A DNA stretch of 64,000 nucleotides from an uncultured Fibrobacterota bacterium (GCA_903876665.1 CAIRAY010000147.1:1-64000); one strand, 5' to 3'; shown: positions 7,436 to 61,393, counted from the stretch's first letter. Numbers and translations: made by a program. The notes: generated from the letters alone by a model not told the origin.

Positions 7436-7788
7436 GCCCCTTGGTCAATGCAATTGAAAAACCCCAAAATGCAGGGCATGGATAATTTGTAAAATACTTT
7501 GAGCCCGCGCTTGTCGTCCTCAATGAGGCCGGCATGGCGGAGTACCGCCAAATGCCTACTGACGGTGGACATGTCGGTGCCCACCACGGGGGCAATTTCG
7601 CAAACACAAGTTTCGCCTTGGGTCAAGAGTTCCAAAATTCGAATGCGCGAAGGATGCCCCATGGCCTTGAAGATGCTGGCACGACGCTTGATCACCGCCA
7701 GGGAGGTTGGCATTTTTGCCGGTTGCACAATGGCACATTCTGTGGCCGACTTGGCTGCATTTTGTTTCATATTTGCAAATATACGCAA
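7432..7788 (-). CDS. arsR: ArsR/SmtB-family metalloregulatory transcriptional repressor. The track start is TTG at 7788; a more likely start is the ATG at 7768-7770, giving MKQNAAKS...
   Basis: HTH region IFKAMGHPSRIRILELL, a metal-site ETCVCEIAPVVG (CVC) motif and the downstream DNA-recognition helix region. Confidence 0.85.
   Translation of the reverse strand: MRIFANMKQNAAKSATECAIVQPAKMPTSLAVIKRRASIFKAMGHPSRIRILELLTQGETCVCEIAPVVGTDMSTVSRHLAVLRHAGLIEDDKRGLKVFYKLSMPCILGFFNCIDQGA
7769..7782. promoter_or_regulatory. Perfect 14-bp palindrome ATATTTGCAAATAT abutting or overlapping the arsR start codon. It is a candidate ArsR operator for autoregulation.
   Basis: The palindrome is read directly from the sequence (catATTTGCAAATATacgcaaatac), with an adjacent partial repeat gcaaata. 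ArsR/SmtB repressors typically bind AT-rich inverted repeats that overlap their own promoters. Confidence 0.4.
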
Positions 7789-7934
7789 ATACTTTCTAAA
7801 ACGTCCACCCCAATTTTTTCTTCATCTATAGGATTCCGTGCGGGCCCTGGAATTTGGCGAAGCGCAAGTGGTACGGGACTTAGGGTGAAGGATTCTATAT
7901 TGGCAGGGAAAATCCTTTTTCAAGTGATTCCTCC

Positions 7935-8744
7935 ATGATTCGATTGTTCCCCATTCTTTTTATCCATTTCATTGCGTCTAACCTTTGGGCGCAGACTACC
8001 TCCCCTACCCCGAAGAAGCCAAACATTGCCGTCCTGAATTTCTCAGGAGATGCTACGGTTACACCCGAGCAGCTGGCGTTCATAACGGGTGAATTTGCCT
8101 CCGAATTAACCCGATCCGAAGCCTTTACCGTGCTGGAACGTAGTCGAATGAAGGATATTCTCCAGGAACAAAATTTCCAGCAAAGCGAAATTTGCAATTC
8201 GAGCGAATGCAAGTTGCAAATGGGTCAAATGCTTGGAGTGGACAACCTGGTCGTCGGAAGCATGGTACGCTTTGGCCCCAACTACGCCTTTCGAGTTGAA
8301 TACTTGGATGTTGCCACTGGGGTCATTTTAAAAACCGTGAGTTTTGAAAAGACTGGTGAATTGCATCAGGTGTACCGCACCGCATGCCAAGAAGGAGCAT
8401 CGGCCCTGGGGCGCTTCGCAAATGGACTGCCAGATTCGGTGACGACCCCATCTTCAACGACTCCCGTTGTTTCCTCTACATACAAACGCCCGGGATGGAA
8501 ATTCCCTGTCTTGGCGGGATTGGCCCTAGGCGGAGTGGTGTGCGGAGTGGCTGGCTTGTTGGAGCATCAAAACATGACAGCAGAGCGCAAGACTTACAAT
8601 AATGCGGATTACACCGGACGGCCTGTGACCGAAGCTAACGCACAATGGGACAAGGTTGTCTCGGCCGAAAGCGCGCGGAATATTTTATGGAGCGCCGGAG
8701 CGGGCCTTCTTGCGGCTGGGCTCGTGGTACAATTCGCCTTCTAA
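7935..8744 (+). CDS. Secreted membrane-anchored protein with a CsgG/LpoB/FlgO-like fold and a C-terminal TM segment
   Basis: Signal peptide MIRLFPILFIHFIASNLWAQ. The pattern NIAVLNFSG...ERSRMKDILQEQ...ECKLQMGQMLGVDNLVVGSM resembles CsgG/LpoB-type domains. A hydrophobic stretch lies near the C-terminus. Confidence 0.45.
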   Translation: MIRLFPILFIHFIASNLWAQTTSPTPKKPNIAVLNFSGDATVTPEQLAFITGEFASELTRSEAFTVLERSRMKDILQEQNFQQSEICNSSECKLQMGQMLGVDNLVVGSMVRFGPNYAFRVEYLDVATGVILKTVSFEKTGELHQVYRTACQEGASALGRFANGLPDSVTTPSSTTPVVSSTYKRPGWKFPVLAGLALGGVVCGVAGLLEHQNMTAERKTYNNADYTGRPVTEANAQWDKVVSAESARNILWSAGAGLLAAGLVVQFAF

Positions 8745-8756
8745 GGAAAAACAGAA

Positions 8757-9623
8757 ATGAAAACTTCAGCGAAATTTTTAACCCGTTTTGGCGTGTTGTG
8801 TGTAATGTTGATCCTGGCCTGCGACGGAGCCGGGCTACGCGATAACCCCACAGACTCCGGAGCAGTCGGCTACCCAGAAAGCTCGGCCCAGGCATCATCG
8901 GCCCAGGTATCTTCAGCCCAGTCCTCGTCAGCACAGGGGTCATCTTCGCCCGTTTCCTCTTCCCTGAATTCATCGTCCCAGGCTTCTTCGTCAACCCCTT
9001 CATCGTCCCAGGTTTCCTCATCCACATCCTCGTCCTCGTCGCAAGCGTTGCCATCCTCTTCGAGCCTAGTTCTTTCTTCCTCCTCCAGCGCATCCTCCTG
9101 CAGGGATTCCGACCCTTCGGGTTCCGTGACGGACTGCCGAGATAGCATTGAGTATAAAACAACCACCATCGGCGGAAAAGTTTGGATGGGTGAAAACTTG
9201 CAATTCGCTCCCTCAACTGGTTCAACCTGGTGTTACAAAGATTCCATCGCCAATTGCGGGAAATTTGGTCGTTTATACGATTATGCCACCGCAGAAACCG
9301 CGTGCATGGAAGGTTGGCACTTGCCAACTAATGTCGAGTGGAGCCAATTGGCTAGTGATGCCGGTGCCAATCTCAAATCAACACAATGGAACACCAACTC
9401 CATTCCAAGTTCTGATTCCTATAAGTTTTCCGCAATAGCGGCACCCTTCTTGGACTCACTTCCTCAATTCCAAAATTTGGATAATGCTTTTTGGTGGGCA
9501 GCCACCCCATCCGCTACTGGAGCAAATAGGGATATTCGATGGATGGCCGGTGGTTCTGCCTCTCTTGGCTCAAGTTCCCGACTGATGTCTTATGGTCTTT
9601 CGGTGCGGTGTATTCAGGATTAA
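8757..9623 (+). CDS. Lipoprotein with a Ser-rich linker and a C-terminal Fibrobacter succinogenes major paralogous domain (TIGR02145-like)
   Basis: Lipobox LILAC, SSAQ-type Ser-rich low-complexity linker, and a domain with WMGENLQF...WCY...C...RLYDYATAE...VRCIQD ending at the C-terminus. Confidence 0.8.
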   Translation: MKTSAKFLTRFGVLCVMLILACDGAGLRDNPTDSGAVGYPESSAQASSAQVSSAQSSSAQGSSSPVSSSLNSSSQASSSTPSSSQVSSSTSSSSSQALPSSSSLVLSSSSSASSCRDSDPSGSVTDCRDSIEYKTTTIGGKVWMGENLQFAPSTGSTWCYKDSIANCGKFGRLYDYATAETACMEGWHLPTNVEWSQLASDAGANLKSTQWNTNSIPSSDSYKFSAIAAPFLDSLPQFQNLDNAFWWAATPSATGANRDIRWMAGGSASLGSSSRLMSYGLSVRCIQD

Positions 9624-46211: not shown

Positions 46212-46532
46212 TTGAGAACTCCATTGGAGGGTTGGTGGAAACTTAAGTGGAAATATAAGAAGGATCAAGGGAAAACAGATCAATCAAATCGTGGATAATC
46301 GGGTATTTCCTAAGTCCGCTAATGGTAATCTCTACAAATAATCCGATATATTGACAATATAGAGAATCTTTAAATGTACCTTCACAAACAGAGTATTTGC
46401 GTATAAAAAACGATAAAAACCCCAATATTTGCAATAATTTGATATTTTTTAATATTCTTCGTACCTTTTGATTAGTACAAAAAATCCTCTTTGCGGGTTG
46501 ATGAATGCAAAAATTCTGGCTATATTCCCAAA

Positions 46533-47372
46533 ATGGATTCAACGGCCATCAACATTTTCGGTTATTCGGATTTCCGCGCGTACCTCCGGGATTACTACTC
46601 GAAGCGCCACAGCTTGGATCGTTCCTTCTCCCATCGCTTCCTCGCTCAAAAACTTGGAGACAAGTCTCCCTCCTTCCTGCAAAAGCTACTCGATGATGAG
46701 CGTCGCCTTAGTCCCCATCAAATTGAAATACTCATTCATTTGTGCCGACTCGAAGAACACGAAGCCAAGTATTTTCGGGTGCTTTATCTCTACTCATCGG
46801 CACCAGGAAGGACCGAGCGGGAATTATATCTAGAACAACTCATATCCCTGAACCACACGCCAAGACGCCAATTGGAGCTAGATCTTTTCGAATTCTATCG
46901 TCACTGGTACCATCCCGCCTTGCGATCCATACTCAGCGTTGTGGATGTTCAAGATGATTTTCGCATGGTCACCAAAATGATCCGGCCTCGCATTTCGGTC
47001 AATCAGGTCAAGGATTCCATTGCCTTGATGGCCCGCTTGGAAATCATTCAAAAAGATGCGAATGGTTACTGGAAGCCCGCGAGCGAGGCTCTATTCGTCA
47101 AAGACAATTTCAACCAGGCCATTATTCAGAATTTCCGCCAGCAATGCCTGGATCTCGCCTCGCAGGCTCTGGTTCAGGGCCATGGCAAAGAAGATTATCA
47201 TTTTTCCACCGGAACCATGAGCGTCAGCTCGGACGCCCATCGCCGAATTTTTGACAAGCTCGAAAAATTCCGCGCCGAAATACGGTCCATTGTGCGGAAA
47301 GATTCCCTTCCGCCCACCAAAGTCATTCAATTACAAACTCAGATTTTCCCATTAATGGAGAACGACAAATGA
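46533..47372 (+). CDS. Fibrobacter paralogous-family protein (TIGR02147-like), a putative HTH regulator, paralog 1
   Basis: Homologous to the 53339-54184 product: FxDYRAY(L/F)R(D/E)xY...LDR(S/R)FSHRFL(A/S)(Q/E)KLGDKSPSF conserved. Start at MDSTAINIF. Confidence 0.8.
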   Translation: MDSTAINIFGYSDFRAYLRDYYSKRHSLDRSFSHRFLAQKLGDKSPSFLQKLLDDERRLSPHQIEILIHLCRLEEHEAKYFRVLYLYSSAPGRTERELYLEQLISLNHTPRRQLELDLFEFYRHWYHPALRSILSVVDVQDDFRMVTKMIRPRISVNQVKDSIALMARLEIIQKDANGYWKPASEALFVKDNFNQAIIQNFRQQCLDLASQALVQGHGKEDYHFSTGTMSVSSDAHRRIFDKLEKFRAEIRSIVRKDSLPPTKVIQLQTQIFPLMENDK

Positions 47373-49483
47373 ATTCAATTTCCGCCAAACCCAAATTGGA
47401 ACGACTGGGGATTTTCGCCCTGATCGTAGGTATTCTCCTTGCGCAAAGTTGCAGCCTCCATGACCCCGAGACGACCAGCGGGATCATCGATGAAACCGAG
47501 ACATTTATTACTGGCACCGTGGTGGATCCGGACGGGAAACCTGTCGCGGGAGCTCGGGTGATGCTTCACGGGGACAGCCTGGGGAGTACTTCGGCAAGCC
47601 TCGCGAAGGTAAGCGAACGGAATTCCGAAGGAACGTTGGAAACCCTGTCGGACAAAAACGGCGATTACCGCTTCGCGGGCCATTTCCGTAGCAAGGCCTA
47701 TCTGGAAGTGGACCTGAACGATTCTCTCGGTTTTCTCGACAGCATTGATTTTTCCACCGGGAAAGCTTTTGAGCGGGAGAACGATGTTCTAAAAGGAAAG
47801 GGTAGCCTGACGGTTCAAACCCTCGATTTGGATAGCGGGGCTGTCATTTGGATTCCTCAAATCGGGACTTCGCTTTTCGTTTCTGGCGATGGTAAAAGCC
47901 TAATCATCATGGCTCCTCCTGGAAATCTGACCATAATCATCATTAATGGCAATGATCGCCAACCCCTTCCCCTGCCTGTGGTGATCGAAGAAAAAGAATC
48001 CACCACGGTTGATCCCGCCAAGGAACTTGAACAAACCTCCAGCGCCAACCAAATGACCGATCTGCGTGATGGCAGAAAATACCGTACCGTTGCCATTGGA
48101 AATCAAATTTGGATGGCTGAAAACCTGAATTACGGCATCATGGATACGAGCAAGTCCAAACTCCAGTCCGGGAACCAAAAATACTGCTACCAGAACGATT
48201 CCACAAATTGCAATAACGAGGGTGGCCTTTATCAATGGCACCAAGCCATGAACCTTCCCGGCTCCTGTTCCACGACAGGCTGTAGCGCACAAATTCAGGT
48301 GCCAAGCCACCAAGGCATTTGCCCAGACGGCTGGCAAATGCCCTCTAAGGCGGACTGGGATTTTCTCGGCACAACTTTGGGAGGAGCCTCAACGGCTGGT
48401 TTCTCCATGAAACTCAACACCACAGGGGACGCCTCCTTCGATGCCACCCTCTATAACGATGGAAATAGCTCGGGCTTTTCAGCCTTCCCTGCTGGAATCC
48501 GCTATTTTAACGGAACCTTCGCCTATCACGCAGGCGATGTCCGCTCCAGCGCAACCATCTGGGAAGCCACCGAAGAATCCTCGACCAATTACATGAATGC
48601 TTGGCGACGTGTGGTGAACAACGAAGGCACCGAGCTTGCTCGCCTCTATAATCATGCTAAACAAGATGCATTTTCGGTGCGCTGCCTGAAAACCTTAGTC
48701 GGAACGTCTTCTCAGGCCACGTCGTCTTCGGTCACTCCATCTTCATCCTCGGTGATTCCACCTTCATCTTCGGTCACCACCCCATCCTCGTCCTCACAGC
48801 TTGTCGCATCCTCCTCCTCAACCTTGACAGCCAATACCATGAGGGATTCTCGCGACAATCAAATTTATGCGACGGTTAAAATTGGCACTCAGGTCTGGAT
48901 GGCTGAAAATCTGAATTATGGAACCATGGACACGAGCTCAAGCACGTTACAAAGTGGAGACCAGAAGTCATGTTACCAGAATCTCGAGGCAAATTGCGAT
49001 ACCGAAGGTGGATTATACCAATGGCATCAGGCCATGAACCTTCCCGGCTCTTGCTCCACCACCGGCTGCAGCGCACAAATCAATTTGCCCAACCATCAGG
49101 GCCTCTGCCCAACGGGCTGGCACATGCCCTCCAAAACCGATTGGGATTTGTTGGGAACAACCTTGGGAGGAGCGGCAACGGCGGGGTTCTCGATGAAGCT
49201 CAACAACACCGGCGACGCCTCTTACGATGCCGCGATTTACAATGATGGCAATTCTTCCGGGTTTTCTGCCTTTCCTGCGGGAATCCGCTACTTCAACGGA
49301 ACTTTCGCTTATCACGGTGGCGAGGTTCGTTCGAGCGCAACCATCTGGGAAGCCACCGAAGAATCCTCAACCTATTATATGAATGCTTGGCGACGTGTGG
49401 TGAACAACGAAGGCACCGAGCTTGCTCGCCTGTATAATCACGCCAAACGAGACGCATTCTCGGTTCGGTGCGTCCAGGACTAG
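47369..49483 (+). CDS. Lipoprotein with an N-terminal CarboxypepD_reg-like domain, a Ser-rich linker and two tandem Fibrobacter succinogenes major paralogous domains (TIGR02145-like)
   Basis: Lipobox ILLAQSC, an IDETETFITGTVVDPDGKPVAGARV segment, and two copies of ...IWMAENLNYG...GGLYQWHQAMNLPGSCSTTGCSAQI...AFSVRC(L/V)xx. It overlaps the upstream gene by 4 bp. Confidence 0.8.
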   Translation: MNSISAKPKLERLGIFALIVGILLAQSCSLHDPETTSGIIDETETFITGTVVDPDGKPVAGARVMLHGDSLGSTSASLAKVSERNSEGTLETLSDKNGDYRFAGHFRSKAYLEVDLNDSLGFLDSIDFSTGKAFERENDVLKGKGSLTVQTLDLDSGAVIWIPQIGTSLFVSGDGKSLIIMAPPGNLTIIIINGNDRQPLPLPVVIEEKESTTVDPAKELEQTSSANQMTDLRDGRKYRTVAIGNQIWMAENLNYGIMDTSKSKLQSGNQKYCYQNDSTNCNNEGGLYQWHQAMNLPGSCSTTGCSAQIQVPSHQGICPDGWQMPSKADWDFLGTTLGGASTAGFSMKLNTTGDASFDATLYNDGNSSGFSAFPAGIRYFNGTFAYHAGDVRSSATIWEATEESSTNYMNAWRRVVNNEGTELARLYNHAKQDAFSVRCLKTLVGTSSQATSSSVTPSSSSVIPPSSSVTTPSSSSQLVASSSSTLTANTMRDSRDNQIYATVKIGTQVWMAENLNYGTMDTSSSTLQSGDQKSCYQNLEANCDTEGGLYQWHQAMNLPGSCSTTGCSAQINLPNHQGLCPTGWHMPSKTDWDLLGTTLGGAATAGFSMKLNNTGDASYDAAIYNDGNSSGFSAFPAGIRYFNGTFAYHGGEVRSSATIWEATEESSTYYMNAWRRVVNNEGTELARLYNHAKRDAFSVRCVQD

Positions 49484-49509
49484 GCCCGGATTTTCTATAT
49501 CTTTAGGAT

Positions 49510-50442
49510 ATGTCCGAATCCCTGACGCCATCTCTTAAGCTGTTCCGAATCATCGCCGATGAAACCCGCCTCAAAATCTTGATGATTTTGGAGCGGGCGG
49601 AATTCACTGTGGGTGAGCTGGTCCGGGTTCTCGGAATCCATCAATCCAACACCAGCAGACACTTGCAACAGCTCCGCGAGGGCTCCCTGGTGGACGACCG
49701 GCGCGAAGGGGCCTTGGTGTACTACCGCTGGAGCGAAGCGCTCCGTGCCAGCCAGGATTTCCAGTCCATGTTGAAATCAGCCTGGCTTGAAATCCCGGAC
49801 CGGGAAGCCGTTGAAGGCCACCTGGAGGCTCTTTTAACTCAACGCCGTCAACAATCCCAACAGTTTTTCGACTCCGTGGCTGGCCGGTATTCCAAAATCG
49901 CAGAGCCCGGTGGCGGCACCGAAGCGTTGTTGCGTGGTTTTGGTTCCCTGCTTAACTTTGACCACGCGGTGGACATTGGATCTGGCGAAGGAGATATCAG
50001 TCTCTTTCTGGCCCGGGGTTGCAAAAAAGTCACCGCCATCGATTTGAACCAAAAAATGCTCGATGTGCTTCGGGACCGTTTCCAACGGGAGGGCTTTTCC
50101 CAAATCGAGGTTCGGCAAGGGGACATGGAGCACCTCCCACTCGAAGACAGCTGCGCGGATCTGGCGATTCTTTCCCAAGTTCTCCACCATGCGGCAACCC
50201 CTGAAAAAGCCCTGGAAGAAACCCTGCGCATTCTGAAACCCGGTGGACGCCTGGTTCTCCTGGACCTCCTGGCCCACGATCAGGACTGGGTCCGCGACCG
50301 ACTTGGGGACCAGTGGCTTGGCTTTGAGTTGCAGCGGGTCAAAGGATGGCTTGCCCAACTTGGTTGCCCTCCCGAGCGTGAAGAAGTGATTCATGTGCAG
50401 GACGGGTTGCCGGCCGTCCTCGTTATTGCCCAAAAAAAATGA
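49510..50442 (+). CDS. ArsR-family HTH regulator fused to a SAM-dependent methyltransferase domain
   Basis: N-terminus LFRIIADETRLKILMILERAEFTVGELVRVLGIHQSNTSRHLQQL (ArsR HTH). C-terminus VDIGSGEGDISLFLA...ILKPGGRLVLLD (class I MTase). Confidence 0.8.
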   Translation: MSESLTPSLKLFRIIADETRLKILMILERAEFTVGELVRVLGIHQSNTSRHLQQLREGSLVDDRREGALVYYRWSEALRASQDFQSMLKSAWLEIPDREAVEGHLEALLTQRRQQSQQFFDSVAGRYSKIAEPGGGTEALLRGFGSLLNFDHAVDIGSGEGDISLFLARGCKKVTAIDLNQKMLDVLRDRFQREGFSQIEVRQGDMEHLPLEDSCADLAILSQVLHHAATPEKALEETLRILKPGGRLVLLDLLAHDQDWVRDRLGDQWLGFELQRVKGWLAQLGCPPEREEVIHVQDGLPAVLVIAQKK

Positions 50443-50527
50443 GACACCCCGCCTTTTTCCTTGCAGATACGAAACGGATTCAGTATAATTGAAGGAATCA
50501 ATCATTTTCAGGAAGGCAAGGCCAATT

Positions 50528-50644
50528 ATGGGAAAGTTTATCAAGTACACCGTCATTATCGCGGTCCTCGGCATCTCGGCATACGCACTTTACCACGTAC
50601 TGAAGAGCCGTGGCCAAAGCCAACTGGACGCCAAAGAGGCCTAA
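50528..50644 (+). CDS. Candidate 38-aa single-TM small protein (MGKFIKYTVIIAVLGISAYALYHVLKSRGQSQLDAKEA), below the ORF-track size cutoff
   Basis: ATG preceded by ggaaggcaagg (SD-like). An upstream TTGCAG-17bp-TATAAT lies at about 50461-50489. A strong TM helix is present, and a hairpin follows the stop. Confidence 0.3.
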   Translation: MGKFIKYTVIIAVLGISAYALYHVLKSRGQSQLDAKEA

Positions 50645-50721
50645 ACCCTACCAGGCTTTCCTAAAAAGCCTGGTTCCCAAGGCCATTCTCCTTGGTTAAA
50701 CTTTACTTTTGATTTTTTTTT

Positions 50722-50753
50722 GCCCCGGAGTCATCCGGGGCTTTCTATTTTTG
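50722..50753 (+). terminator. Rho-independent terminator-like hairpin gccccgga-gtca-tccggggc followed by tttctattttt. It lies immediately upstream of the yfhO-like ATG and downstream of the small ORF.
   Basis: 8-bp GC-rich stem, 4-nt loop, T-rich tail. It is preceded by two more hairpins (50651-50673, 9-bp stem; 50677-50695, 6-bp stem). Confidence 0.4.
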
Positions 50754-50758
50754 CATCC

Positions 50759-53263
50759 ATGAAAATGAAAATGAACATTCTCCTTGCCGTGGGTTTCGGA
50801 CTGCTGTTGGTCATTCTTTTCCGTGGGTTTCTTTTTGACTCGTCCTTGCTAATGCTAAACAGCGACCAGCTTAATGGCCTGGGCTCCCATTATCTCCGCA
50901 TCCATGATTTGATCGTCACCCAATGGGACGACTCCCGCCTCGGTGGAATTCCCACCCTCGACGCGCTCTTCGGTGCAGCCCTTCATCCTCTGGTTCTCAC
51001 CCAATGGATCATGGACCCGGCCCGCGCGGTCGGTTTCAAATTTATCCTCTGCGTCTACATTGCGTTCCTTTCCGCCTACGCACTTTTCCGCAAAGTCACT
51101 GGCCGTTGGGAATGGGCCGCCTTGCTCGGATTTCTTTATGCCCTGAACCCCCAGTTCTTTACCCACATTTATGGTGGCCACGATGGAAAAATGATGGTCT
51201 TTTCCGTGGCCCCGCTTGCCGTGCTAGGAATCATCTTGATCATGCGGGAGCGGCGTTTTTCCGGACTCGTTCTTCTCACTCTTTCGGTCCTTTGGATGGT
51301 CGTTTCTTCCCATCTGCAGTTGACCTATTTTTTCCTATGGGGTGCCGGACTTTTTACTCTATACGAGGCATTTCGCATCAAGCTTTCTGCAAAAGAAAGA
51401 ACCATTCGACTGGGACTTGCCGCTGCAGGGCTTGCCTTGGCGCTTGGAATGGGTTCATTCCAAATTATCCCGCCCTACATGTACACCACCCAGCAATCGG
51501 TCCGTGGATCGGGTGAAAAGACCACCATTGGGCACGCGGTCAGCTGGTCCCTGCACCAAGAGGAGCTCGCTTCCATGCTCGTTCCCGGGTTTTTGGGCAT
51601 GGATGTGGAACAAGAAAGAGCATACTGGGGGCACAATTCCTTTAAGCTAAACCATGATGCGGCGGGGACTCTTCTCACCTTCCTGGCCTTCCTGGGGCTA
51701 TTCGTGGCCAGTAACAGGCGAGCCGCAATTTTCTGGTTCCTAGGGTCAACGGTTGCATTGTCCTACGCATTGGGTGCCCACTCTCCCCTCTTTGGACTGT
51801 GGTATGCCATTTTGCCCGGCGTCAAGAATTTCCGCGCACCTTCCATGGCCATATTCTGGATTCCGCTAGCCATGACCATGATGGCCGCACCGGTGTTGGA
51901 CGCCCTGACCGACAAGAAAAAAAGAGAAAAACTGATTCCGGGAATGGCTTTATTTGCATCCCTGGTCGCCATAGTCGTCATTGCCCGATTTACTTGGGAA
52001 TCCATGCTCGGGGTCCCAGGAATTGCAGTCTCCATGGTATTTGGAGCCTGCGTAGTCGCAACTCTGAATTTGCAAGACCGCGGTGAATCCTTCTCCCCTT
52101 CGAATCTGATTAACGCATGGACGAGCGGACTGAAGGGTTCGAACAAAGTCGAAATGGGACTCGTCCTGCTCCCTTTTATTTTCGTTGCCATTGTGATGGC
52201 CTCGGGCCAAAACCTCGTTTCCGACCCTGCAACAGGGCAATACTTTCAACGAATTAACACCCAGCTCATGACCTCCAGTGCCAGTCAGGGCCTCATTTCG
52301 GGAATCATTGTCCTAATTACCGCCTCCGTGGCTTTTTGGGTCGTAGCCTCTCGTCCTCTTTGGCTAGCCGCTGGGATTCTGGTACTGGTCGCATCGGTGG
52401 ATTTATATCTCATTGACAGCCCCTTTATCCAAAATGTCTCCATGAAATCCTACATTCAACCTGACAACCAAATCGTTCAACTTTTGCGTAGCGATTCTCC
52501 CGACAGTCTTCAATTCCCCCGACTTCTTTCGGTCTCCCGAAACCCAGCTCTTTCCGGAAACGTTTTTCCAGCCTATGGAATGCGGAATGCTCTGGGATCC
52601 CACGATAACGAACTGGCGAGTTACCGCGAGTTCCGTGGCGGGCAGGAATCCTCGAATTTTCTGGTAAATGTGGAGAACAACCCCTTCCTGAACTTGCTCA
52701 ATATTGGGTATGTTATTTTTGATACGCCCCAGGGAACCCAGGTCCAGCGCAATCCAGGGGCCCTCCCCTATGTCTCCCTTTATGGGTCCTATAAAATCGT
52801 TCCCCATGATTCGGTCATTCCCTTGCTTAAGCAAGATTGGGATTACCGCCTGGCCATGCTGCTTGAGGTTTCTCCAACAGGCCTTCCCAACGAGGCGAAA
52901 TGGAACGAAACAACCGGACCTCGGAAAATTTCCGGCACAGCCAAGCTCGTCTCTAGCCCCAAAATGGATACCCAGATTTTTGAAGTCAAATCCGACGGCC
53001 CAGCCCTGATGCTGGTCTCAGGCAATTATCACCCCTACTGGAAGGCCTCTATTGACGGCTCCCCTACCCCGGTTATAAAAGCCTTTGGCACCCTGCGTGC
53101 GGTCGTGGTTCCAGCAGGGACACACACGGTGGAAATGAAATATCGTTCCGACATGGTTGCTCTTTCGATGAAAATTGCCGGAATATCCCTCGCACTGTTC
53201 CTCGTTTCCTTTTTGCTGGCTCTGTTTCTGCATTTTCTTCGCAAGCGGGGTACTCCCACCTGA
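50759..53263 (+). CDS. YfhO-like polytopic membrane protein (putative GT-C-type glycosyltransferase for an extracytoplasmic polymer or protein). The track start is TTG at 50720, inside the hairpin; the ATG at 50759 (MKMKMNILLAVGF) is preferred.
   Basis: 835 aa with more than 12 predicted TM helices in the N-terminal two thirds and a large C-terminal extracytoplasmic domain plus a final TM, the architecture of the YfhO family. Confidence 0.55.
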   Translation: MKMKMNILLAVGFGLLLVILFRGFLFDSSLLMLNSDQLNGLGSHYLRIHDLIVTQWDDSRLGGIPTLDALFGAALHPLVLTQWIMDPARAVGFKFILCVYIAFLSAYALFRKVTGRWEWAALLGFLYALNPQFFTHIYGGHDGKMMVFSVAPLAVLGIILIMRERRFSGLVLLTLSVLWMVVSSHLQLTYFFLWGAGLFTLYEAFRIKLSAKERTIRLGLAAAGLALALGMGSFQIIPPYMYTTQQSVRGSGEKTTIGHAVSWSLHQEELASMLVPGFLGMDVEQERAYWGHNSFKLNHDAAGTLLTFLAFLGLFVASNRRAAIFWFLGSTVALSYALGAHSPLFGLWYAILPGVKNFRAPSMAIFWIPLAMTMMAAPVLDALTDKKKREKLIPGMALFASLVAIVVIARFTWESMLGVPGIAVSMVFGACVVATLNLQDRGESFSPSNLINAWTSGLKGSNKVEMGLVLLPFIFVAIVMASGQNLVSDPATGQYFQRINTQLMTSSASQGLISGIIVLITASVAFWVVASRPLWLAAGILVLVASVDLYLIDSPFIQNVSMKSYIQPDNQIVQLLRSDSPDSLQFPRLLSVSRNPALSGNVFPAYGMRNALGSHDNELASYREFRGGQESSNFLVNVENNPFLNLLNIGYVIFDTPQGTQVQRNPGALPYVSLYGSYKIVPHDSVIPLLKQDWDYRLAMLLEVSPTGLPNEAKWNETTGPRKISGTAKLVSSPKMDTQIFEVKSDGPALMLVSGNYHPYWKASIDGSPTPVIKAFGTLRAVVVPAGTHTVEMKYRSDMVALSMKIAGISLALFLVSFLLALFLHFLRKRGTPT

Positions 53264-53338
53264 TCACGCCACATCAAAAAACGTTCTTTTTGGCATAAAT
53301 CATTTTGATATACCCGAATTATTTGCTTAATTTGTTCC

Positions 53339-54184
53339 GTGACGAAATCCGACATTAGCATTTTCAAATTTGTGGATTACCGCGCGTACTTCCGAGAAAG
53401 CTATGCCACCCAGAATCGCTTGGACCGTCGTTTCTCCCATCGATTCCTTTCCGAAAAACTTGGGGACAAATCCCCCTCTTTTTTCCTCAAAGTAATTCAA
53501 GGACAGCGTCGCCTTTCCGATGAGCAGCTCGAGAAAATCGGCAAACTGTTCAATTTAGACCGCGAAGAATTCAGGTATCTTCAAACCATGTACCGCTATG
53601 GAATCGCCAAGGATAATGCCGAGCGGGAATACCACCTGGGGCTCATGGTCGCCATATCCTCCCCTTCCAGGAAGGAACTGGGGAGCGAGGCTTCGGATTT
53701 TTATTCCGAATGGTTCCATTCTGCCGTGCGAGCCATGCTCGGCCTGCTTGACATCGGAGATGACCTTGGCCCTTTAATCCGCCGCATGAAACCTACCATT
53801 TCGATCATACAGGCGCGCCAGTCCCTACAGCTCCTGGAAAGACTTGGCTTGATCGAGAAAAAACCGACTGGCTTTTGGAAACCCAAAGAAAACTCCATTT
53901 TTTTCAAATCCCCAATTCATGACGCCACCATGCGATCCTATCGTTTGAAGTGCCTGGACCTTGCAAAAATGGCCGTATCCGCTCCCCAATCCGCCAATCC
54001 CCCGCAATTTTTTACCACCACCATGACCGTATCCGATGAGGCGATGGCAAAAATCCAGCGCAACCTTGCCAAATTCCGTGCAGAGGTGCGAACCATCGTT
54101 TCCCGGGACAACCTTCCCCAAACTCGCGTTCTCCAGCTACAAGACGTCCTCCTTTCCCTCTCGGACGATCTGGGCACAACCTAG
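53339..54184 (+). CDS. Fibrobacter paralogous-family protein (TIGR02147-like), a putative HTH regulator, paralog 2
   Basis: See paralog 1. MTKSDISIFKFVDYRAYFRESY...LDRRFSHRFLSEKLGDKSPSF. Confidence 0.8.
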   Translation: MTKSDISIFKFVDYRAYFRESYATQNRLDRRFSHRFLSEKLGDKSPSFFLKVIQGQRRLSDEQLEKIGKLFNLDREEFRYLQTMYRYGIAKDNAEREYHLGLMVAISSPSRKELGSEASDFYSEWFHSAVRAMLGLLDIGDDLGPLIRRMKPTISIIQARQSLQLLERLGLIEKKPTGFWKPKENSIFFKSPIHDATMRSYRLKCLDLAKMAVSAPQSANPPQFFTTTMTVSDEAMAKIQRNLAKFRAEVRTIVSRDNLPQTRVLQLQDVLLSLSDDLGTT

Positions 54185-54192
54185 GCAACAAA

Positions 54193-55407
54193 ATGACAAC
54201 CCACTTCAAACTTTTTCTCTCACTAGCCGTAACCTTTTCCATTTTTGCATGCTCGCAAAAAAAAGAGGTCGCCGGAGGGTATATCGATGAAACCGAAACG
54301 GCTCTTTCGGGTCGCCTGATTGGCCCCCACGGTGAGCCCATCGCCTTCCAAAAAGTTACCGTATTCAAAGACTTCCGTTCCGGAATCGGAACCCTCTTTG
54401 ATTCTGTGGGCATATCCACCACCACGGACAAAGATGGCCACTTCCAACTTGAAACCCTGAGCCCTGGCCAATGGTTCCTCAGTGCCATCACCGCAGATTC
54501 CCTGGGAATCATGCAACCAATCCAGCTAGATTTGCAGGATAACCGCCTTGACACCTTGTCGCCACTGGGGATCCTGGTCATCAAATCCATTCCGGGCAGC
54601 TTAAGCCAAAAGTTCTTCATCCCCCAGCTGGGACGAATTATCGACCTAGAAAATCTAGATTCTGTGTGTCTTCCGATTCCCGCAGGGTCCTATGAACTGT
54701 TCCCGATGGAAAACCAGACACCCATTATCGCAGACAGCCTACCCTCGATCACCGTACTTTCCGGGCAAATGGCCTCCATCCAGCTTGAAGCCCCTCCCAT
54801 CCTATTATGGAGCGCCCTCGCCAATTGGACATTCCAGAATGCCTTGGCCCCTTGGTCGGACACAAGTGGCTTCAACCATGGCGCCAATGTTGAATTTGGA
54901 GCCCCCATCCGATCCGTGCAGGGAGAGCTGGTCCTCGATGGGCAATCGGGTTTGCGTATCGCATTGACATCCGCCCTTGCCCCCGTAGACTTTATGGTGC
55001 GTGGGTCCCTTCAATCCGCCGTTTCACCTGTGCCCGTTCAGAATTTGATCTGTTCCGAGAGCGCTCTGCCCGAGTCCGATTCCTGGTGCCTCCGCCTCCG
55101 TAATCAAGATTCCCTGGTTTTTTATTTCCGCGATGGACAAACCAGCGAGGATTCCCTCGTTGCCTTTTTGGAGCCAGAAGTCTTGCAAGAATTCCGCGCA
55201 GAGGTTTATCATGGCACAGCCCGCCTTTGGGTGGCAGGAATCCTTCTCACAAGCAAAAACACGCTGGCTATGGACTTCTCGGACCTTTCCGAAGATTTCA
55301 CTTTCGGCTATAGGTCCGCGAGCCCTGCCTCGGATCGACTCTTTTCTGGGATTATCGATTATCTCAGTATCAACGGGATTACCCCACCGATTGAATCCAA
55401 CAACTGA
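54193..55407 (+). CDS. Lipoprotein with a CarboxypepD_reg-like N-terminal domain and a C-terminal LamG/concanavalin-like domain
   Basis: Lipobox SIFAC, a GYIDETETALSGRLIGPHGEPIA segment (shared with the 47369 lipoprotein), and a C-terminal ...FSGIIDYLSINGI typical of Laminin_G_3. Confidence 0.6.
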   Translation: MTTHFKLFLSLAVTFSIFACSQKKEVAGGYIDETETALSGRLIGPHGEPIAFQKVTVFKDFRSGIGTLFDSVGISTTTDKDGHFQLETLSPGQWFLSAITADSLGIMQPIQLDLQDNRLDTLSPLGILVIKSIPGSLSQKFFIPQLGRIIDLENLDSVCLPIPAGSYELFPMENQTPIIADSLPSITVLSGQMASIQLEAPPILLWSALANWTFQNALAPWSDTSGFNHGANVEFGAPIRSVQGELVLDGQSGLRIALTSALAPVDFMVRGSLQSAVSPVPVQNLICSESALPESDSWCLRLRNQDSLVFYFRDGQTSEDSLVAFLEPEVLQEFRAEVYHGTARLWVAGILLTSKNTLAMDFSDLSEDFTFGYRSASPASDRLFSGIIDYLSINGITPPIESNN

Positions 55408-57481: not shown

Positions 57482-58378
57482 TTATCGAGCCCTAATGGTT
57501 CTCCATGCGAACCATAGGCCTCCAATGAGCGCCATGATCAACACCATCAAGTAGGCTGGCCCCTGAGAGGCCAAACACTCCTCCGCCGAAATCCCAGTCA
57601 GGGTAAACAAAAACACCGTGGCCCATTCCCGCACTCCGATTCCAAATACAGAAATCGGAATCATGGTTAAAATGGTTATCGGCGGCAGAAACAGGAAAAT
57701 CGGAAGTAAAGGCATCTCCACGCCGATGGACCGAAAAAACATCCAGGGCTGCAAGGTCACCAAGACCTGAATTACCAGGGAATCGATCCACCCCTTCTGT
57801 CCCAACCTCAAGAAGGCGCGAAACTCCAAAAATCGGTTAAACCGTGTCTTTTTTAAAAAGAGAAAGGACCAAGGCCCAAAAAAGAACACCAAGCCCACCG
57901 CAGTAAGCAATGAAGTCGCAATCATTCCGGTGTTCACCGAAGCGGGAAGCTTACTGGGCCAAAAAAACCAGGCAATCCAATAAAAGACAATCATAATCGC
58001 CATACCCATCACCCGACTCATAAAAACAGAGGACAAGGACCCGCCCATGTCTTTCATCGCCCTTCCGAGCCCCACGGATTTGACGGCGTCGCCCCCCATA
58101 CCCGAAGGCAAAAGAATATTGAAGAAGTATCCCACAGAGGTGAAATACAAGAATTCCTTGAGCCGAGGAACCTCACCATTTACTTCTAGAGTCATGCGTT
58201 GCCAGCGCAGGGACTGCATAAACATTACCAGAAAGCTTACTAAAAGAGCCAGAAGAAACCAGGGAATGGACATCCCCCTGGTGCGCGAAAAAACCTCTCC
58301 CATGGGAAAGGACCGGAACAGCCACCAAATCAGAATCCCGGTAACCAGGATCTTTGCAAATAGAAGCAGGCGCTTCAC
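57482..58378 (-). CDS. UPF0104-family membrane protein (flippase-like / lysyl-phosphatidylglycerol synthase TM-region-like)
   Basis: 8 TM helices with an N-terminal LLLFAKILVTGILIWWLF. It overlaps the kinase gene by 4 bp. Confidence 0.6.
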   Translation of the reverse strand: MKRLLLFAKILVTGILIWWLFRSFPMGEVFSRTRGMSIPWFLLALLVSFLVMFMQSLRWQRMTLEVNGEVPRLKEFLYFTSVGYFFNILLPSGMGGDAVKSVGLGRAMKDMGGSLSSVFMSRVMGMAIMIVFYWIAWFFWPSKLPASVNTGMIATSLLTAVGLVFFFGPWSFLFLKKTRFNRFLEFRAFLRLGQKGWIDSLVIQVLVTLQPWMFFRSIGVEMPLLPIFLFLPPITILTMIPISVFGIGVREWATVFLFTLTGISAEECLASQGPAYLMVLIMALIGGLWFAWRTIRAR

Positions 58379-59403
58379 GGATCCTGCTCAGAAAGGAGAG
58401 GAGCAAGGACTCTTTCCAAGGGCAGGGAACTCGCCTCCAGCACACACTTCAAGCGTTTGACCCCCGGGGAAATGTGCCTTGCAAAAGAGGGAATCCCCTT
58501 GTTGCGAGAAAGGTTGCAATAGGCCCCCAATGCCTGCATCAACCTTTGCAAGGACGCTTCCAAAAAGCGTTTCCAATGAATCTCCAAGTCTCCGACCAGC
58601 AGTGGATGATCCTGGCAGAACAACTCAAAAAGATGACGCACCTCAGGCACAGAAAGGTAAACATAGGGATCCCAAAGAAGACTTGCCAAGTCATAATAGA
58701 GGGAGCCATTACGTGCGCCCTGAAAATCAACAAATCCAATATGGCCTTCTATGGTCACCATTATATTTTGCGATTGAAAATCACGATGCATAAGGCCAAG
58801 CGGATGCCCAGCAACTTGACTTGCCAATTGGTCGAACAAGGGTTCAAGCGAGGCAGTCTGTAGCAAAGAATAACCCCGATGCCCCTGCAAAAAATGCTCG
58901 ATGAAGTAATTGGTTTCCCAACGCAGTGCATGCACATCAAATACACGACTTCGAAGATCCGCGTTGCGATCGAAAGCCATCTGCGAAACGCTCTGCCAGC
59001 GCACAAGCTCGGTGACCACCTTGTGATAGATGGGAACTACCGAAGTCGCACTGGGGGGCAGCCCACTCGGATCCAATTCGTGGCAACAATCCCACAATTG
59101 GCGATTCCCCAGATCATCCATGAGAACTTGCCTGGCTGCATGATCAATGGCATGGATTTTGGGAGTGGGAAGACCCAGTCCGCCAAATAATTTGCAGTAA
59201 TCCACGAAGCGGTCAAAGTCTGCATCCAAAGCGTGCGATTGCTGCAACACCCAGGAGATTCCCTTGACATGCAAACGATAATATTTGCGACCCGACCCCG
59301 CCTGACCCGCGAAAGAAACCGACATGCGAGCAGGAATTTCGACACCGTCGGAAAGAAAAGTCCGGACAGCCGGGGCCAGTTCGATTTCAATCAAAGCATC
59401 CAT
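58375..59403 (-). CDS. APH-fold sugar kinase (AmgK-like anomeric MurNAc/GlcNAc kinase family; a LicA-like alternative is not excluded). Start at MDALIEIEL; the track ORF extends to 59520.
   Basis: N-terminal GQAGSGRKYYRL (cf. the GDASxRRYxR motif), catalytic LMHRDFQSQNIM (HxDxxxxN), and DFQGA (DFG-like). Confidence 0.7.
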   Translation of the reverse strand: MDALIEIELAPAVRTFLSDGVEIPARMSVSFAGQAGSGRKYYRLHVKGISWVLQQSHALDADFDRFVDYCKLFGGLGLPTPKIHAIDHAARQVLMDDLGNRQLWDCCHELDPSGLPPSATSVVPIYHKVVTELVRWQSVSQMAFDRNADLRSRVFDVHALRWETNYFIEHFLQGHRGYSLLQTASLEPLFDQLASQVAGHPLGLMHRDFQSQNIMVTIEGHIGFVDFQGARNGSLYYDLASLLWDPYVYLSVPEVRHLFELFCQDHPLLVGDLEIHWKRFLEASLQRLMQALGAYCNLSRNKGIPSFARHISPGVKRLKCVLEASSLPLERVLAPLLSEQDP

Positions 59404-60302
59404 CGGAACCCTGCTCCCGCAACAATTCTTGACAATACTTCTCCGGCTTCTATTCTCGCGTTGGGCAATATGATGCAGTGGTCGAGCTTGGCTCCATCGC
59501 CAATCCAGGCACCTTCGCAAATTACCGTTCCTGCGCCGGTGGAAAAGTGCCCGGTGGAAATGTCGGGGGAAACCCAGCGGTCAACGCCAAGTTCAAGCAG
59601 GCGGGCCTCGCAGGCCCGATAGAGACCTTCAGGGGATCCCATGTCGATCCAGGTGGCCTGGCTTTGCTCCGTGTAGGCCAAGGGAAAGCGCCCGGCATGA
59701 GCCTCGCGGGCCCAAAAATCCACCACATTGAAATCCGAATCCAAAATGCGAGAGAGTGCACCCGGGCCATACCAGGAAACCCCGGAAAACGTTTGCTTGC
59801 GAACTGCGGAACCTATCGAGTATTTTCCATCCCGGCCACAAACCCGACCCCGGACATCAATTTGCAGATTATCCACATTGGGGAAATCGACACAGAGTAG
59901 CGCAAAAGGAGCTTCGGAAGCGCGAGCTGCCAAAACAAAGGCTGCCAAATCGAACCCATGAAAATTGTCGCCGTTTAAAACCAGAAGTTCGCCCTTCCAT
60001 CCATCCTTCCAGACCCGGTGGAGTGGCCCTCCGGTACCTAAGATTTGCGGATGTTCCACATAAACTTTATCAACCCCAAAAGCTTCGGAGGCTTCCTGGA
60101 TCTGGTCTGCCAAGTGATGCGCATTCACAAATAATTTTTCGACGGGCATTTTTTCCCGCAGCTTTTTACAAGACGCAACCTGATGTTCCAGGATGCTTTT
60201 GTCCACGATGGGAATCAAAGGCTTGGGGATGATATCGGTGTAGGGCCGTAGCCGGGTCCCCAAACCCGCAGCTAAAACCAGTACCGAAAGGGATTCGCTC
60301 AT
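59391..60302 (-). CDS. Sugar-1-phosphate nucleotidyltransferase (MurU-like) with a C-terminal left-handed beta-helix extension
   Basis: N-terminal LVLAAGLGTRLRPYTDIIPKPLIPI (G-x-G-T-R-x-x-P), and a C-terminal hexapeptide-repeat-like region ICEGAWIGDGAKLDHCIILPNARIEAGEV. Confidence 0.75.
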   Translation of the reverse strand: MSESLSVLVLAAGLGTRLRPYTDIIPKPLIPIVDKSILEHQVASCKKLREKMPVEKLFVNAHHLADQIQEASEAFGVDKVYVEHPQILGTGGPLHRVWKDGWKGELLVLNGDNFHGFDLAAFVLAARASEAPFALLCVDFPNVDNLQIDVRGRVCGRDGKYSIGSAVRKQTFSGVSWYGPGALSRILDSDFNVVDFWAREAHAGRFPLAYTEQSQATWIDMGSPEGLYRACEARLLELGVDRWVSPDISTGHFSTGAGTVICEGAWIGDGAKLDHCIILPNARIEAGEVLSRIVAGAGFRWML

Positions 60303-61393
60303 GATTCGATATGCTGGTTACGGTACCAACCATTCCCCAGAAGAATGTCGATTGGCAACTTGGTGAATTCGTACTCATATGGAGGCTGCTTCCACTGGAA
60401 TTGGCCCGGATAACGGTGGAACAGGAATTTGAGGATCTGGATTGCCGATTCAAAGGGGAGAAAGGCCTCCCGGTCCAGGACATGGAACTGCGCCCCGCCA
60501 CAAAACTGACCGGACCACTTATGGAAGGTTGGCTGGAACCAGTGCTCCCGAAAATAGACACCCGGCAGCGATAACCCGTTCAAATGGGCACAAAGCTCCT
60601 CGGCATCAATAAATGGAGCACCGAAGATTTCAAATGGCCGCGTAGTCCCACGACCTTCGGAAATGTTGGTGGCTTCAAAAAGACACATGCCCGGATACAC
60701 AATTGCTGTGTCCAGTGTGGGCATATTGGGAGAAGGGATCACCCAGGGAAGCCCAGTCTGGTCAAACCACATGTTGGAGGCATAGCCCTCCATTTCGAGC
60801 ACATGCAATTTGGATGCAGGAAAGCATTCGGCCTGGAACTGGCGCGCCAGCTGGCCAATGGTCTTACCGTGCCGAACCGGAATGCTATGGAGCCCGACAA
60901 AACTGGTATGATCGAGCTCCAGCGTGGGACCTTCGACCAAATGACATCCAATGGGATTGGGGCGGTCCACGACCACCACTTCGATGCCCGCTTTTTCACA
61001 GGCCTTCATGCACAGGTACAAAGTCCAAATGAAGGTGTAGTAGCGGGCTCCAACATCCTGCAAATCCACCAAAAGAACCTCGACGCCCTCAAGCATCTTT
61101 GCGGAGGGTTCGCGGTTTTCGCCGTAAAGACTGTAAACGGGAATGCCCAAAACCGGATCCGGGTAGCCCTCCCATTCGATCATGTTGTCCTGGGTATGTC
61201 CCTTGATTCCGTGCTGGGGACCAAAGAGGGCGACCAGGCGGTAAAGCGTTCCATCCAAAGCGGTTATCTTCTGCAGGGAATGCCTGAGATCGGCCCCGAT
61301 GGAAGCAGGGTGCAAAACAGCGCCAAGGCGTTTTCCGCGCAGGGCGGTTGGCCAATGGCGTGAAAGGTTGTCGATTGCAAGTTTTATGGTCAT
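60299..61393 (-). CDS. DUF1343-family protein (NamZ-like exo-beta-N-acetylmuramidase family)
   Basis: 364 aa with LFGPQHGIKGH and the conserved DUF1343 core. It overlaps the nucleotidyltransferase by 4 bp. Confidence 0.75.
   Translation of the reverse strand: MTIKLAIDNLSRHWPTALRGKRLGAVLHPASIGADLRHSLQKITALDGTLYRLVALFGPQHGIKGHTQDNMIEWEGYPDPVLGIPVYSLYGENREPSAKMLEGVEVLLVDLQDVGARYYTFIWTLYLCMKACEKAGIEVVVVDRPNPIGCHLVEGPTLELDHTSFVGLHSIPVRHGKTIGQLARQFQAECFPASKLHVLEMEGYASNMWFDQTGLPWVIPSPNMPTLDTAIVYPGMCLFEATNISEGRGTTRPFEIFGAPFIDAEELCAHLNGLSLPGVYFREHWFQPTFHKWSGQFCGGAQFHVLDREAFLPFESAIQILKFLFHRYPGQFQWKQPPYEYEFTKLPIDILLGNGWYRNQHIES

Follow-up and report, generated by a model that had tools for sequence, protein, structure and literature searches.

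A TIGR02147-family protein and a modular lipoprotein form a recurrent two-gene cassette in the Fibrobacterota

Proteins of the TIGR02147/DUF4423 family are encoded, across the Fibrobacterota, directly ahead of genes for lipoproteins that share a characteristic N-terminal module, and this pairing of regulator and lipoprotein is a property of the family. The DNA considered here, a stretch of 64,000 nucleotides (nt) from an uncultured Fibrobacterota bacterium (GCA_903876665.1, CAIRAY010000147.1:1-64000) that is referred to as the window and is the same in sequence as contigs from ruminant-gut metagenomes, its gene families pointing to Fibrobacter or a close relative, carries two such cassettes, each with a TIGR02147/DUF4423 gene (T1, T2) followed on the same strand by a lipoprotein gene (LP1, LP2). 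The cassettes have a common anatomy, their two genes stay paired and are inherited together, the C-terminal domains of the lipoproteins are swapped, and the lipoproteins diverge much faster than the regulators. Each cassette is best read as a single instance of a self-contained two-gene operon, found repeatedly across the phylum.

Within the window (Table 1), the T1 and LP1 genes meet in a 4-nt ATGA overlap and the T2 and LP2 genes are separated by an 8-nt gap; a map of open reading frames (ORFs) reproduces exactly the gene positions, the overlap and the gap reported in a preliminary description of this DNA. T1 and T2 are 39% identical over their full length (277 amino acids (aa), E 1e-77), LP1 and LP2 are homologous over their first ~146 aa (E 5e-10) and share an N-terminal module of ~150-200 aa (the N-module), and the two cassettes are old paralogues. 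With profile hidden Markov models (HMMs) built for the regulator and for the N-module, matches in the 64-kb window are restricted to these two cassettes, and in a six-frame scan of the whole of it the motif DET[ENHQD][TAS] is confined to LP1 and LP2.

Table 1. Features of the window, in order of position
Feature	Position (nt)	Strand	Basis or remark
ORF of 1548 aa	59-4705	-	
CsgG-like gene	7935-8744		
Small FISUMP lipoprotein	8757-9623		follows the CsgG-like gene
GTACC-N9-GTAC element	46461-46478	+	~70 nt upstream of T1; candidate operator, putative function
T1, TIGR02147/DUF4423 protein, 279 aa	46533-47372	+	ORF map and HMM matches
LP1, lipoprotein, 704 aa	47369-49483	+	ORF map, HMM matches, alignment to LP2
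LP1 tether motif GIIDETET	47480-47503		
ArsR-SAM-methyltransferase fusion	49510-50442	+	HMM; not part of the module
Transmembrane peptide, 38 aa	50528-50644	+	not part of the module
Polytopic membrane protein, ~834 aa, YfhO-like C-terminus	50759-53263	+	not part of the module
T2 leader	53275-53334	+	palindrome CAAAAAACGTTCTTTTTG at 53275-53292; conserved block TTGATATACCC...TTAATTTG at 53305-53334
TTTGATAT in the T2 leader	53304-53311		
T2, TIGR02147/DUF4423 paralogue, 281 aa, GTG start	53339-54184	+	ORF map and HMM matches
LP2, lipoprotein, 404 aa	54193-55407	+	ORF map, alignment to LP1, hhalign
LP2 tether motif GYIDETET	54277-54300		
LP2 LamG-like domain	54778-55407		
LPG_synthase_TM-family protein, APH-family kinase, NTP_transferase, NamZ (DUF1343)	57482-61393	-	four co-oriented genes

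The extent of the pairing was assessed from a set of collected loci (numbered with the prefix L). Degenerate-pattern scans yielded four Fibrobacterota metagenome-assembled genomes, none of the genus Fibrobacter, from reference genomes and 25 loci from metagenomes, and distant TIGR02147 proteins obtained by profile search were traced to further loci by exact look-up. The HMM-based census comprises 31 distinct TIGR02147 3′ ends, 29 of them with at least 300 nt of downstream sequence, and 27 of these 29 informative genes have the gene for an N-module lipoprotein directly behind them, in the same orientation. The paired loci come from rumen, bog and sludge Fibrobacterota, the pairing persists in members that are only 23-36% identical to T1, and about 18 of 26 pairs show the 4-nt overlap (a tally of coordinates and gene tables). 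The preliminary description had proposed a duplicated regulator-cargo unit and had named TIGR02147 genes without a consistent lipoprotein partner, or sister species without the pairing, as the observations that would speak against it; the unit is supported by the census, and the pairing is likewise present in sister species (L008, L010, L011 and L013).

Pairwise identities among the regulators and among the N-modules co-vary (Pearson r = 0.92, a value reached in none of 5000 Mantel permutations), and the nearest neighbours in the two sets are mostly concordant. A correlation of this kind is what co-inheritance as a unit predicts, and shared genome ancestry adds to it. When loci were retrieved from the lipoprotein side, a DUF4423 gene was found upstream in two of three; the underlying profile search with the N-module returned 14 short proteins only, which makes this a weak test of reciprocity.

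Local duplication of the cassette is seen a second time in L043 (304-7513), where two three-gene units stand in tandem; in each, a divergent receiver-only response regulator accompanies a TIGR02147 gene and the gene for a lipoprotein of 566 aa.

The N-module consists of a lipobox, a tether bearing a G-x-x-(D)-E-T motif (the ET motif), and two beta-sandwiches, and extends to about residue 200 in LP1 and over residues ~34-200 in LP2. By inspection, the lipobox follows a hydrophobic signal sequence in both proteins (...ILLAQS-C28 in LP1, ...SIFA-C20 in LP2). The longer motif that had been noticed in the two mature N-termini is real, with one spacer to be amended: it reads G-x-IDETET-x3-G-x4-P-x-G-x-P-[IV]-A, with x4 instead of x5. 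In the partner lipoproteins, the sequence G-[TGI]-x-(D)-E-T-x-[TA] is located 8-14 residues past the Cys and is followed by a CarboxypepD_reg-like G.P..GA.V.L segment. In an alignment of 18 N-modules three positions are invariant, namely the lipobox Cys, the ET-motif Glu and one Gly, and the preceding Gly and the Thr of the motif are nearly so; in the most distant partners the motif is reduced to G-(G/T)-x-E-T-G. Matches to CarboxypepD_reg (PF13620) are found at E < 1e-3 in 17 of the 18 partner lipoproteins (best 3.9e-11), LP1 and LP2 themselves scoring 29.4 and 24.9 bits, both under the gathering score of 32.3. In the AlphaFold2 (AF2) model of LP2, for which the overall predicted local distance difference test (pLDDT) score is 52, the two beta-sandwiches at residues 34-200 reach pLDDT ~70-84, and the tether (residues 21-33) is modelled with low confidence directly ahead of the first strand.

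Three readings of the ET motif were considered and set aside. A TonB box was rejected because the sequence G-T-E-T-G-[DN] of distant members does not resemble one, and a Bacteroidetes lipoprotein export signal because the motif is placed 8-14 residues past the Cys rather than at +2 to +5; for an ester- or isopeptide-bond motif, no supporting pattern was found.

Beyond the N-module the lipoproteins differ. LP1 matches FISUMP/TIGR02145 (PF09603) at 275.7 bits against a cutoff of 41.65, in two copies, which appear in the DNA as an internal repeat of 786 nt with 79% identity, and it contains Ser-rich linkers; LP2 is without a FISUMP match. The C-terminus of LP2 has no Pfam match at E <= 0.01, yet hhalign aligns a profile of LP2 and its orthologue over 182 columns (probability 99%, E 4e-18) with repeats that a related lipoprotein contains, and these repeats score Laminin_G_3 (PF13385) at E 6e-29. 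The earlier assignment of two Fib_succ_major domains to LP1 and a LamG-like domain to LP2 thus holds for both proteins. Among partner lipoproteins in general the C-terminus may be composed of two FISUMP domains, one or two Laminin_G_3 domains, an NHL/six-bladed propeller, a disaggregatase-type repeat, seven further CarboxypepD_reg repeats, or nothing recognizable. The FISUMP domain has been described as extracytoplasmic and abundant, with 17-119 copies reported per genome (PMC4704652), and CarboxypepD_reg lipoproteins have been found in the envelope proteome of Fibrobacter succinogenes S85 (PMC6851124).

The element that is linked to TIGR02147 is the N-module and not FISUMP, since the window also encodes a small FISUMP lipoprotein (Table 1) that has neither the N-module nor the ET motif and is without a TIGR02147 neighbour. 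This small protein has a Ser/Ala/Gln-rich linker. Tandem N-module lipoproteins behind a single regulator were observed in L013, where the second of them (7005-8327) carries a disaggregatase-type repeat, and in the P0097 contig (genes 6836-8704 and 8714-10627).

Replacement of the cargo domain can be followed within one orthologous locus. LP1 and its L008 orthologue (1197-3062) have only their first 208 aa in common, at 47% identity, and beyond residue 208 LP1 continues with two FISUMP domains whereas the L008 protein continues with two Laminin_G_3 domains; the regulators of the two loci are 67% identical. In the comparison of the window with this sister contig, identity amounts to 82% for the ArsR-methyltransferase fusion, 78% for T2, 68% for the YfhO-like protein, 67% for T1, 47% for the LP1 N-terminus and 35% for LP2. 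Divergence is therefore much faster in the lipoproteins than in their cognate regulators, as seen from T2 versus LP2 and from T1 versus the LP1 N-terminus.

T1 and T2 are full-length members of their family, with scores of 243.3 and 208.1 bits against the NCBIfam model TIGR02147 (cutoff 50) and of 86.4 and 68.9 bits against DUF4423 (Pfam PF14394, cutoff 30). The family comprises 15,387 clusters at 50% identity when matches at E <= 1e-3 are counted, and 2,402 at E <= 1e-30; it spans the phylum, and a DUF4423 protein has been reported in Bdellovibrio, so that its earlier designation as Fibrobacter-specific was too narrow. No transmembrane segment or signal peptide was detected in the TIGR02147 protein, which is predicted to be soluble and cytoplasmic, and no sequence relatives were found in the PDB. 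The AF2 model, built from 13 sequences (pLDDT 74), suggests two DNA-binding-type domains in T1. The first is an XRE-like helix-turn-helix (HTH) at residues ~14-88 with helices at 14-28, 34-40, 48-53, 61-70 and 75-88; the second is a winged helix at residues ~126-182, in which helices 126-134, 144-149 and 156-168 and strands 172-174 and 180-182 follow one another in the H-H-H-beta-beta order. The C-terminal part is modelled as a helical hairpin. Foldseek returned no solved analogue of the whole chain at E <= 0.001; the best match is 4g6q_B, of unknown function, and those ranked after it include the DNA-binding proteins BrxR, HigA, BusR, C.Esp1396I and YodB. The TIGR02147 protein is accordingly predicted, from the model, to be a cytoplasmic dual-HTH protein. 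At the level of the fold this bears out the HTH-like character first proposed for these proteins; the anti-sigma-like alternative is not supported, neither a transmembrane segment nor structural matches of that kind having been found. Membership in an anti-phage defence system was rejected, as PADLOC models gave no match to T1, T2, LP1 or LP2 at E <= 0.01.

The DNA upstream of the regulator genes contains conserved elements or palindromes that are specific to each orthologue group, a distribution that would fit paralogue-specific operators and in itself proves nothing. In the five cassette-1 leaders, the sole invariant block is GTAC within TTCGTACC...G(G/T)AC, which in the window corresponds to the candidate operator ahead of T1 (Table 1). 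Three cassette-2 leaders share TTGAT(G/A)TACC...TTTAATTTG at about -45 to -8, a putative promoter block that resembles the Bacteroidetes-type consensus (-33 TTTG / -7 TAnnTTTG). Other groups have the palindromes GTATACC-AAT-GGTATAC, GTATTC-N5-GAATAC and CAAAAA-N6-7-TTTTTG, a high-GC group has its own palindrome TTGTTCTACAAAACAGGCACCC, and in both L043 cassettes each intergenic region holds the near-perfect palindrome TGTAATCA...TGATTACA together with a sigma-70-like TTGACG-N17-TATATT.

The element TTTGATAT, which the preliminary description had offered as common to both leaders, was rejected as a shared operator: the window contains three copies where 1.8 would be expected, as many are reached in 25 of 100 shuffled sequences, and the element is not conserved, being absent from four orthologous cassette-1 leaders. 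Its copy in the T2 leader overlaps the -33 part of the putative promoter block. In high-GC Fibrobacterota from bog and sludge, TTGTTCTAC-N7-8-GC(A/C)CCC was observed upstream of the regulator, with a second GTTCT just before the ATG; the motif stands at about -70 in L001, L002, L004, L018, L019, L021 and L023, occurs also in L003, L026 and L027, and is common to two clearly distinct regulator groups. TTGTTCTAC and GTTCT are possible operator or promoter elements. A universal motif of the form GTTCT or GTTCTAC-N7-GCMCCC (at about -70), formulated post hoc from the two high-GC groups and the T2 leader, was abandoned when it showed no clear recurrence in three loci inspected later (L043 and L044 among them), and it is regarded as group-specific. 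Around the cassettes, no convincing inverted repeats of the kind associated with invertible promoters or phase variation were found, and the numbers of sigma-70 promoters and terminators predicted by scanning did not exceed those obtained from shuffled sequence.

The cassette may be pictured as follows. The TIGR02147 protein would bind DNA upstream of its own operon and would control transcription of its cognate lipoprotein, with one regulator per lipoprotein; translation of the second gene is usually coupled to that of the first through the 4-nt ATGA overlap. The lipoprotein, composed of a lipobox, a short and probably flexible tether, two CarboxypepD_reg-like beta-sandwich "stalk" domains and an interchangeable, presumptively non-catalytic binding domain, would be an envelope protein, probably surface-exposed, of the adhesin or lectin type, and the ET motif may be recognized as a linear signal that directs sorting, processing or modification. 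The conjunction of these three proposals, an own-operon regulator, an envelope binding lipoprotein and an ET motif that acts as a linear signal, is considered moderately probable.

Several points weigh against this interpretation. DNA binding and operon control by T1 and T2 are predicted from computation; the AF2 model of the regulator is of moderate quality only, Pfam HTH models match neither T1 nor T2 at E <= 0.01, and no upstream motif common to all paralogue groups was found. Surface exposure of the lipoproteins is judged from domain types and rapid divergence alone, and the low pLDDT of the tether may just stem from a shallow alignment. The pairing itself has exceptions. L012, an orthologue of cassette 1, has lost the lipoprotein, and its regulator runs straight into the ArsR-methyltransferase gene; in L040, a frameshifted contig, two other ORFs separate the regulator from the N-module, which is situated ~1.9 kb downstream of it; and in L042 the 3.9 kb upstream of the N-module contain no regulator. 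Furthermore, the census is biased, in that most loci were fetched via the regulator and many are close orthologues, the number of independent lineages being estimated at ~14. The lone N-module lipoprotein of L042 (1-4415) is located beside RHS/YD-repeat and Peptidase_C39 genes, with a FISUMP protein further downstream.

Between and beyond the two cassettes, family searches confirmed the fusion of an ArsR-type HTH with a class-I S-adenosylmethionine (SAM) methyltransferase, the small transmembrane protein, and the GT4 and FkbM genes of the preliminary description. The ArsR-methyltransferase gene is the most conserved of the local block (82-83% in two sister lineages) and is always positioned directly behind cassette 1. 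The protein encoded at 50759-53263 has ~13 transmembrane segments followed by a C-terminal extracytoplasmic domain and a final transmembrane segment, which fits a YfhO-type architecture, and no solved relative was found for it by sequence. At the other end of the window, the 1548-aa ORF combines an RCC1-repeat beta-propeller, bacterial TSP3 repeats and a Big_7 Ig domain, and its product is probably a large secreted or surface protein.

One explanation that competes with the two-gene operon is that the two genes are neighbours by chance, both belonging to large paralogous families in a gene-dense genome, or that their adjacency is an artefact of annotation. Both families are indeed very large, with the cluster number given above for TIGR02147 and the reported FISUMP copy numbers per genome (PMC4704652), and chance adjacency would be expected sometimes; yet pairing with a constant order and strand is seen in 27 of 29 loci, mostly with the 4-nt overlap and down to 23% identity, the specific N-module of the partner occurs nowhere else in the 64 kb, and the FISUMP lipoprotein that lacks the module lacks the TIGR02147 neighbour as well. 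Coincidence is effectively refuted by the census and is regarded as extremely improbable. A second explanation ties the cassettes to the adjacent glycan genes and regards the lipoproteins as substrates or components of envelope glycan or glycoprotein remodelling, for instance with a YfhO-like GT-C enzyme that O-glycosylates the Ser/Thr-rich linkers or the ET motif, and with GT4 and FkbM building the glycan. This would accommodate the long Ser-rich linkers of LP1, the location of GT4 and FkbM directly downstream on the same strand, and the weak similarity of the membrane protein's C-terminus to YfhO and to the Streptococcus mutans protein-glycosylation enzyme PgfM1 (60-70 aa, E ~1e-4, far under the 1400-bit cutoff). 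The order of cassette 1, ArsR-methyltransferase, YfhO-like gene and cassette 2 is moreover kept in two further lineages, although only in these (the contig with L008 and L013, and L012), and for this reason a genus-level association of the cassettes with the membrane protein could be functional. In every deeper paralogue, however, the neighbours are unrelated and do not include a GT-C, GT4 or FkbM gene, the flanks elsewhere including enolase, GH65 with nif genes, trp genes, FtsK with LolA, fatty-acid synthesis, receiver-only response regulators and an integrase, and even in the sister contig the gene past cassette 2 is not GT4 but encodes a second lipoprotein, with a LamG protein encoded after it. 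The match to YfhO (PF09586) amounts to 20.5 bits against a gathering score of 28.5 and covers the last ~60 residues, so that the initial label of a YfhO-like GT-C enzyme retains its topology and falls short in family assignment. The DETET sequence, on inspection, does not fit the Bacteroidetes O-glycosylation motif, D-[ST]-[AILVMT]. The sugar kinase, nucleotidyltransferase and DUF1343 genes that had been counted among the surface-glycan genes are on the opposite strand; DUF1343 is now NamZ, an exo-beta-N-acetylmuramidase, and together with the APH kinase and the NTP_transferase it has the composition of an AmgK/MurU-type set for salvage of N-acetylmuramic acid (MurNAc) and peptidoglycan recycling, and these genes look like MurNAc recycling rather than surface glycan. 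A tie to envelope glycan or glycoprotein remodelling is thus not general, given the unrelated flanks and an order conserved only in a Fibrobacter-genus lineage, and the picture of a glycan island that includes the cassettes is corrected; as an explanation of the cassettes it is deemed unlikely.

It is also conceivable, with a probability that we judge to be low, that the TIGR02147 protein is a stoichiometric cytoplasmic partner and not a transcription factor, one that binds the nascent N-terminus with its ET tether before export, in the role of a chaperone or a targeting factor, or else as an autoregulator that senses secretion through its titration by unexported precursor. The tight translational coupling, with the 4-nt overlap as the norm, the co-divergence of the regulator with the N-module rather than with the cargo domain, and the presence of an invariant motif in a region modelled as flexible right after the signal peptide would all be in keeping with such a partner. 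Simple linkage, however, predicts the co-divergence equally, DNA-binding folds are predicted for both globular domains of the protein, and its structural neighbours are all regulators that bind DNA; in addition, a need for dedicated cytoplasmic partners is not known for Sec/Lol lipoproteins. In a related and more speculative proposal, to which we would assign a rather slight probability, TIGR02147 proteins are a new class of secretion-coupled autoregulators: while still in the cytoplasm, each pre-lipoprotein would be recognized at its conserved G-x-x-(D)ET tether by the dual-HTH protein to which it is translationally coupled, so that export of the lipoprotein frees the regulator or not and thereby sets transcription of the operon. 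If this were true, Fibrobacterota would run dozens of independently controlled, fast-diversifying surface binding proteins.

The recurrent two-gene operon gives the large and functionally unassigned TIGR02147 family, through its near-constant coupling to a lipoprotein, a concrete and testable role, and with it a lipoprotein module that had no name before, marked by an invariant ET motif, is defined. It also identifies a set of putative envelope proteins, each provided with a dedicated regulator; for the organisms concerned, attachment to plant fibre is a key part of cellulose degradation in the rumen. Few recognizable regulators were noted near cellulase genes in the genome of F. succinogenes S85 (PMC3079729). 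The TIGR02147 family, of which T1 and T2 are ordinary members, and the FISUMP domain of LP1 are already known. What appears to be new is the near-obligate pairing, which seems to be undescribed, along with the definition of the N-module and its ET motif, the swapping of cargo and the prediction of a dual-HTH fold. Within the searchable literature, curators' family comments lying outside it, TIGR02147 is named in no paper and DUF4423 in one, in passing and for a Bdellovibrio protein, and the Fibrobacter papers found discuss FISUMP and CarboxypepD_reg lipoproteins without this linkage to TIGR02147.

Among known systems, the closest is the TIGR02147 ("Fsuc_second")/DUF4423 family itself, to which a lipoprotein partner, the ET motif and the dual-HTH prediction are now added. 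In heading what would be their own operon, T1 and T2 resemble locally acting autoregulators of the XRE or winged-helix type, such as HigA antitoxins, C.Esp1396I and the ArsR/HxlR/YodB repressors; unlike these, they combine two predicted DNA-binding-type domains in a single chain of ~280 aa, and they are partnered with a large lipoprotein and not with a toxin, a restriction enzyme or a detoxification gene. LP1 is, like the FISUMP lipoproteins of Fibrobacteres that have been proposed to be cellulose-binding or cohesin-like, a lipoprotein with two FISUMP domains; here, however, FISUMP is one of several interchangeable cargo domains and the N-module carries the link to TIGR02147. The YfhO-like membrane protein of the window, placed beside putative surface proteins with Ser/Thr-rich linkers, recalls the S. 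mutans Pgf machinery (PgfM1 and adhesins), although the similarity extends over just 60-70 aa and the neighbourhood is not conserved past a genus-level lineage. The partner lipoproteins finally resemble stalk-plus-tip adhesins, with weak matches to CarboxypepD_reg, SdrD_B and SpaA models and N-terminal beta-sandwiches that are followed by a lectin-like domain; adhesion is putative here, and in contrast to the C-terminal sortase anchoring of those adhesins, the partner lipoproteins are N-terminally lipid-anchored in a diderm.

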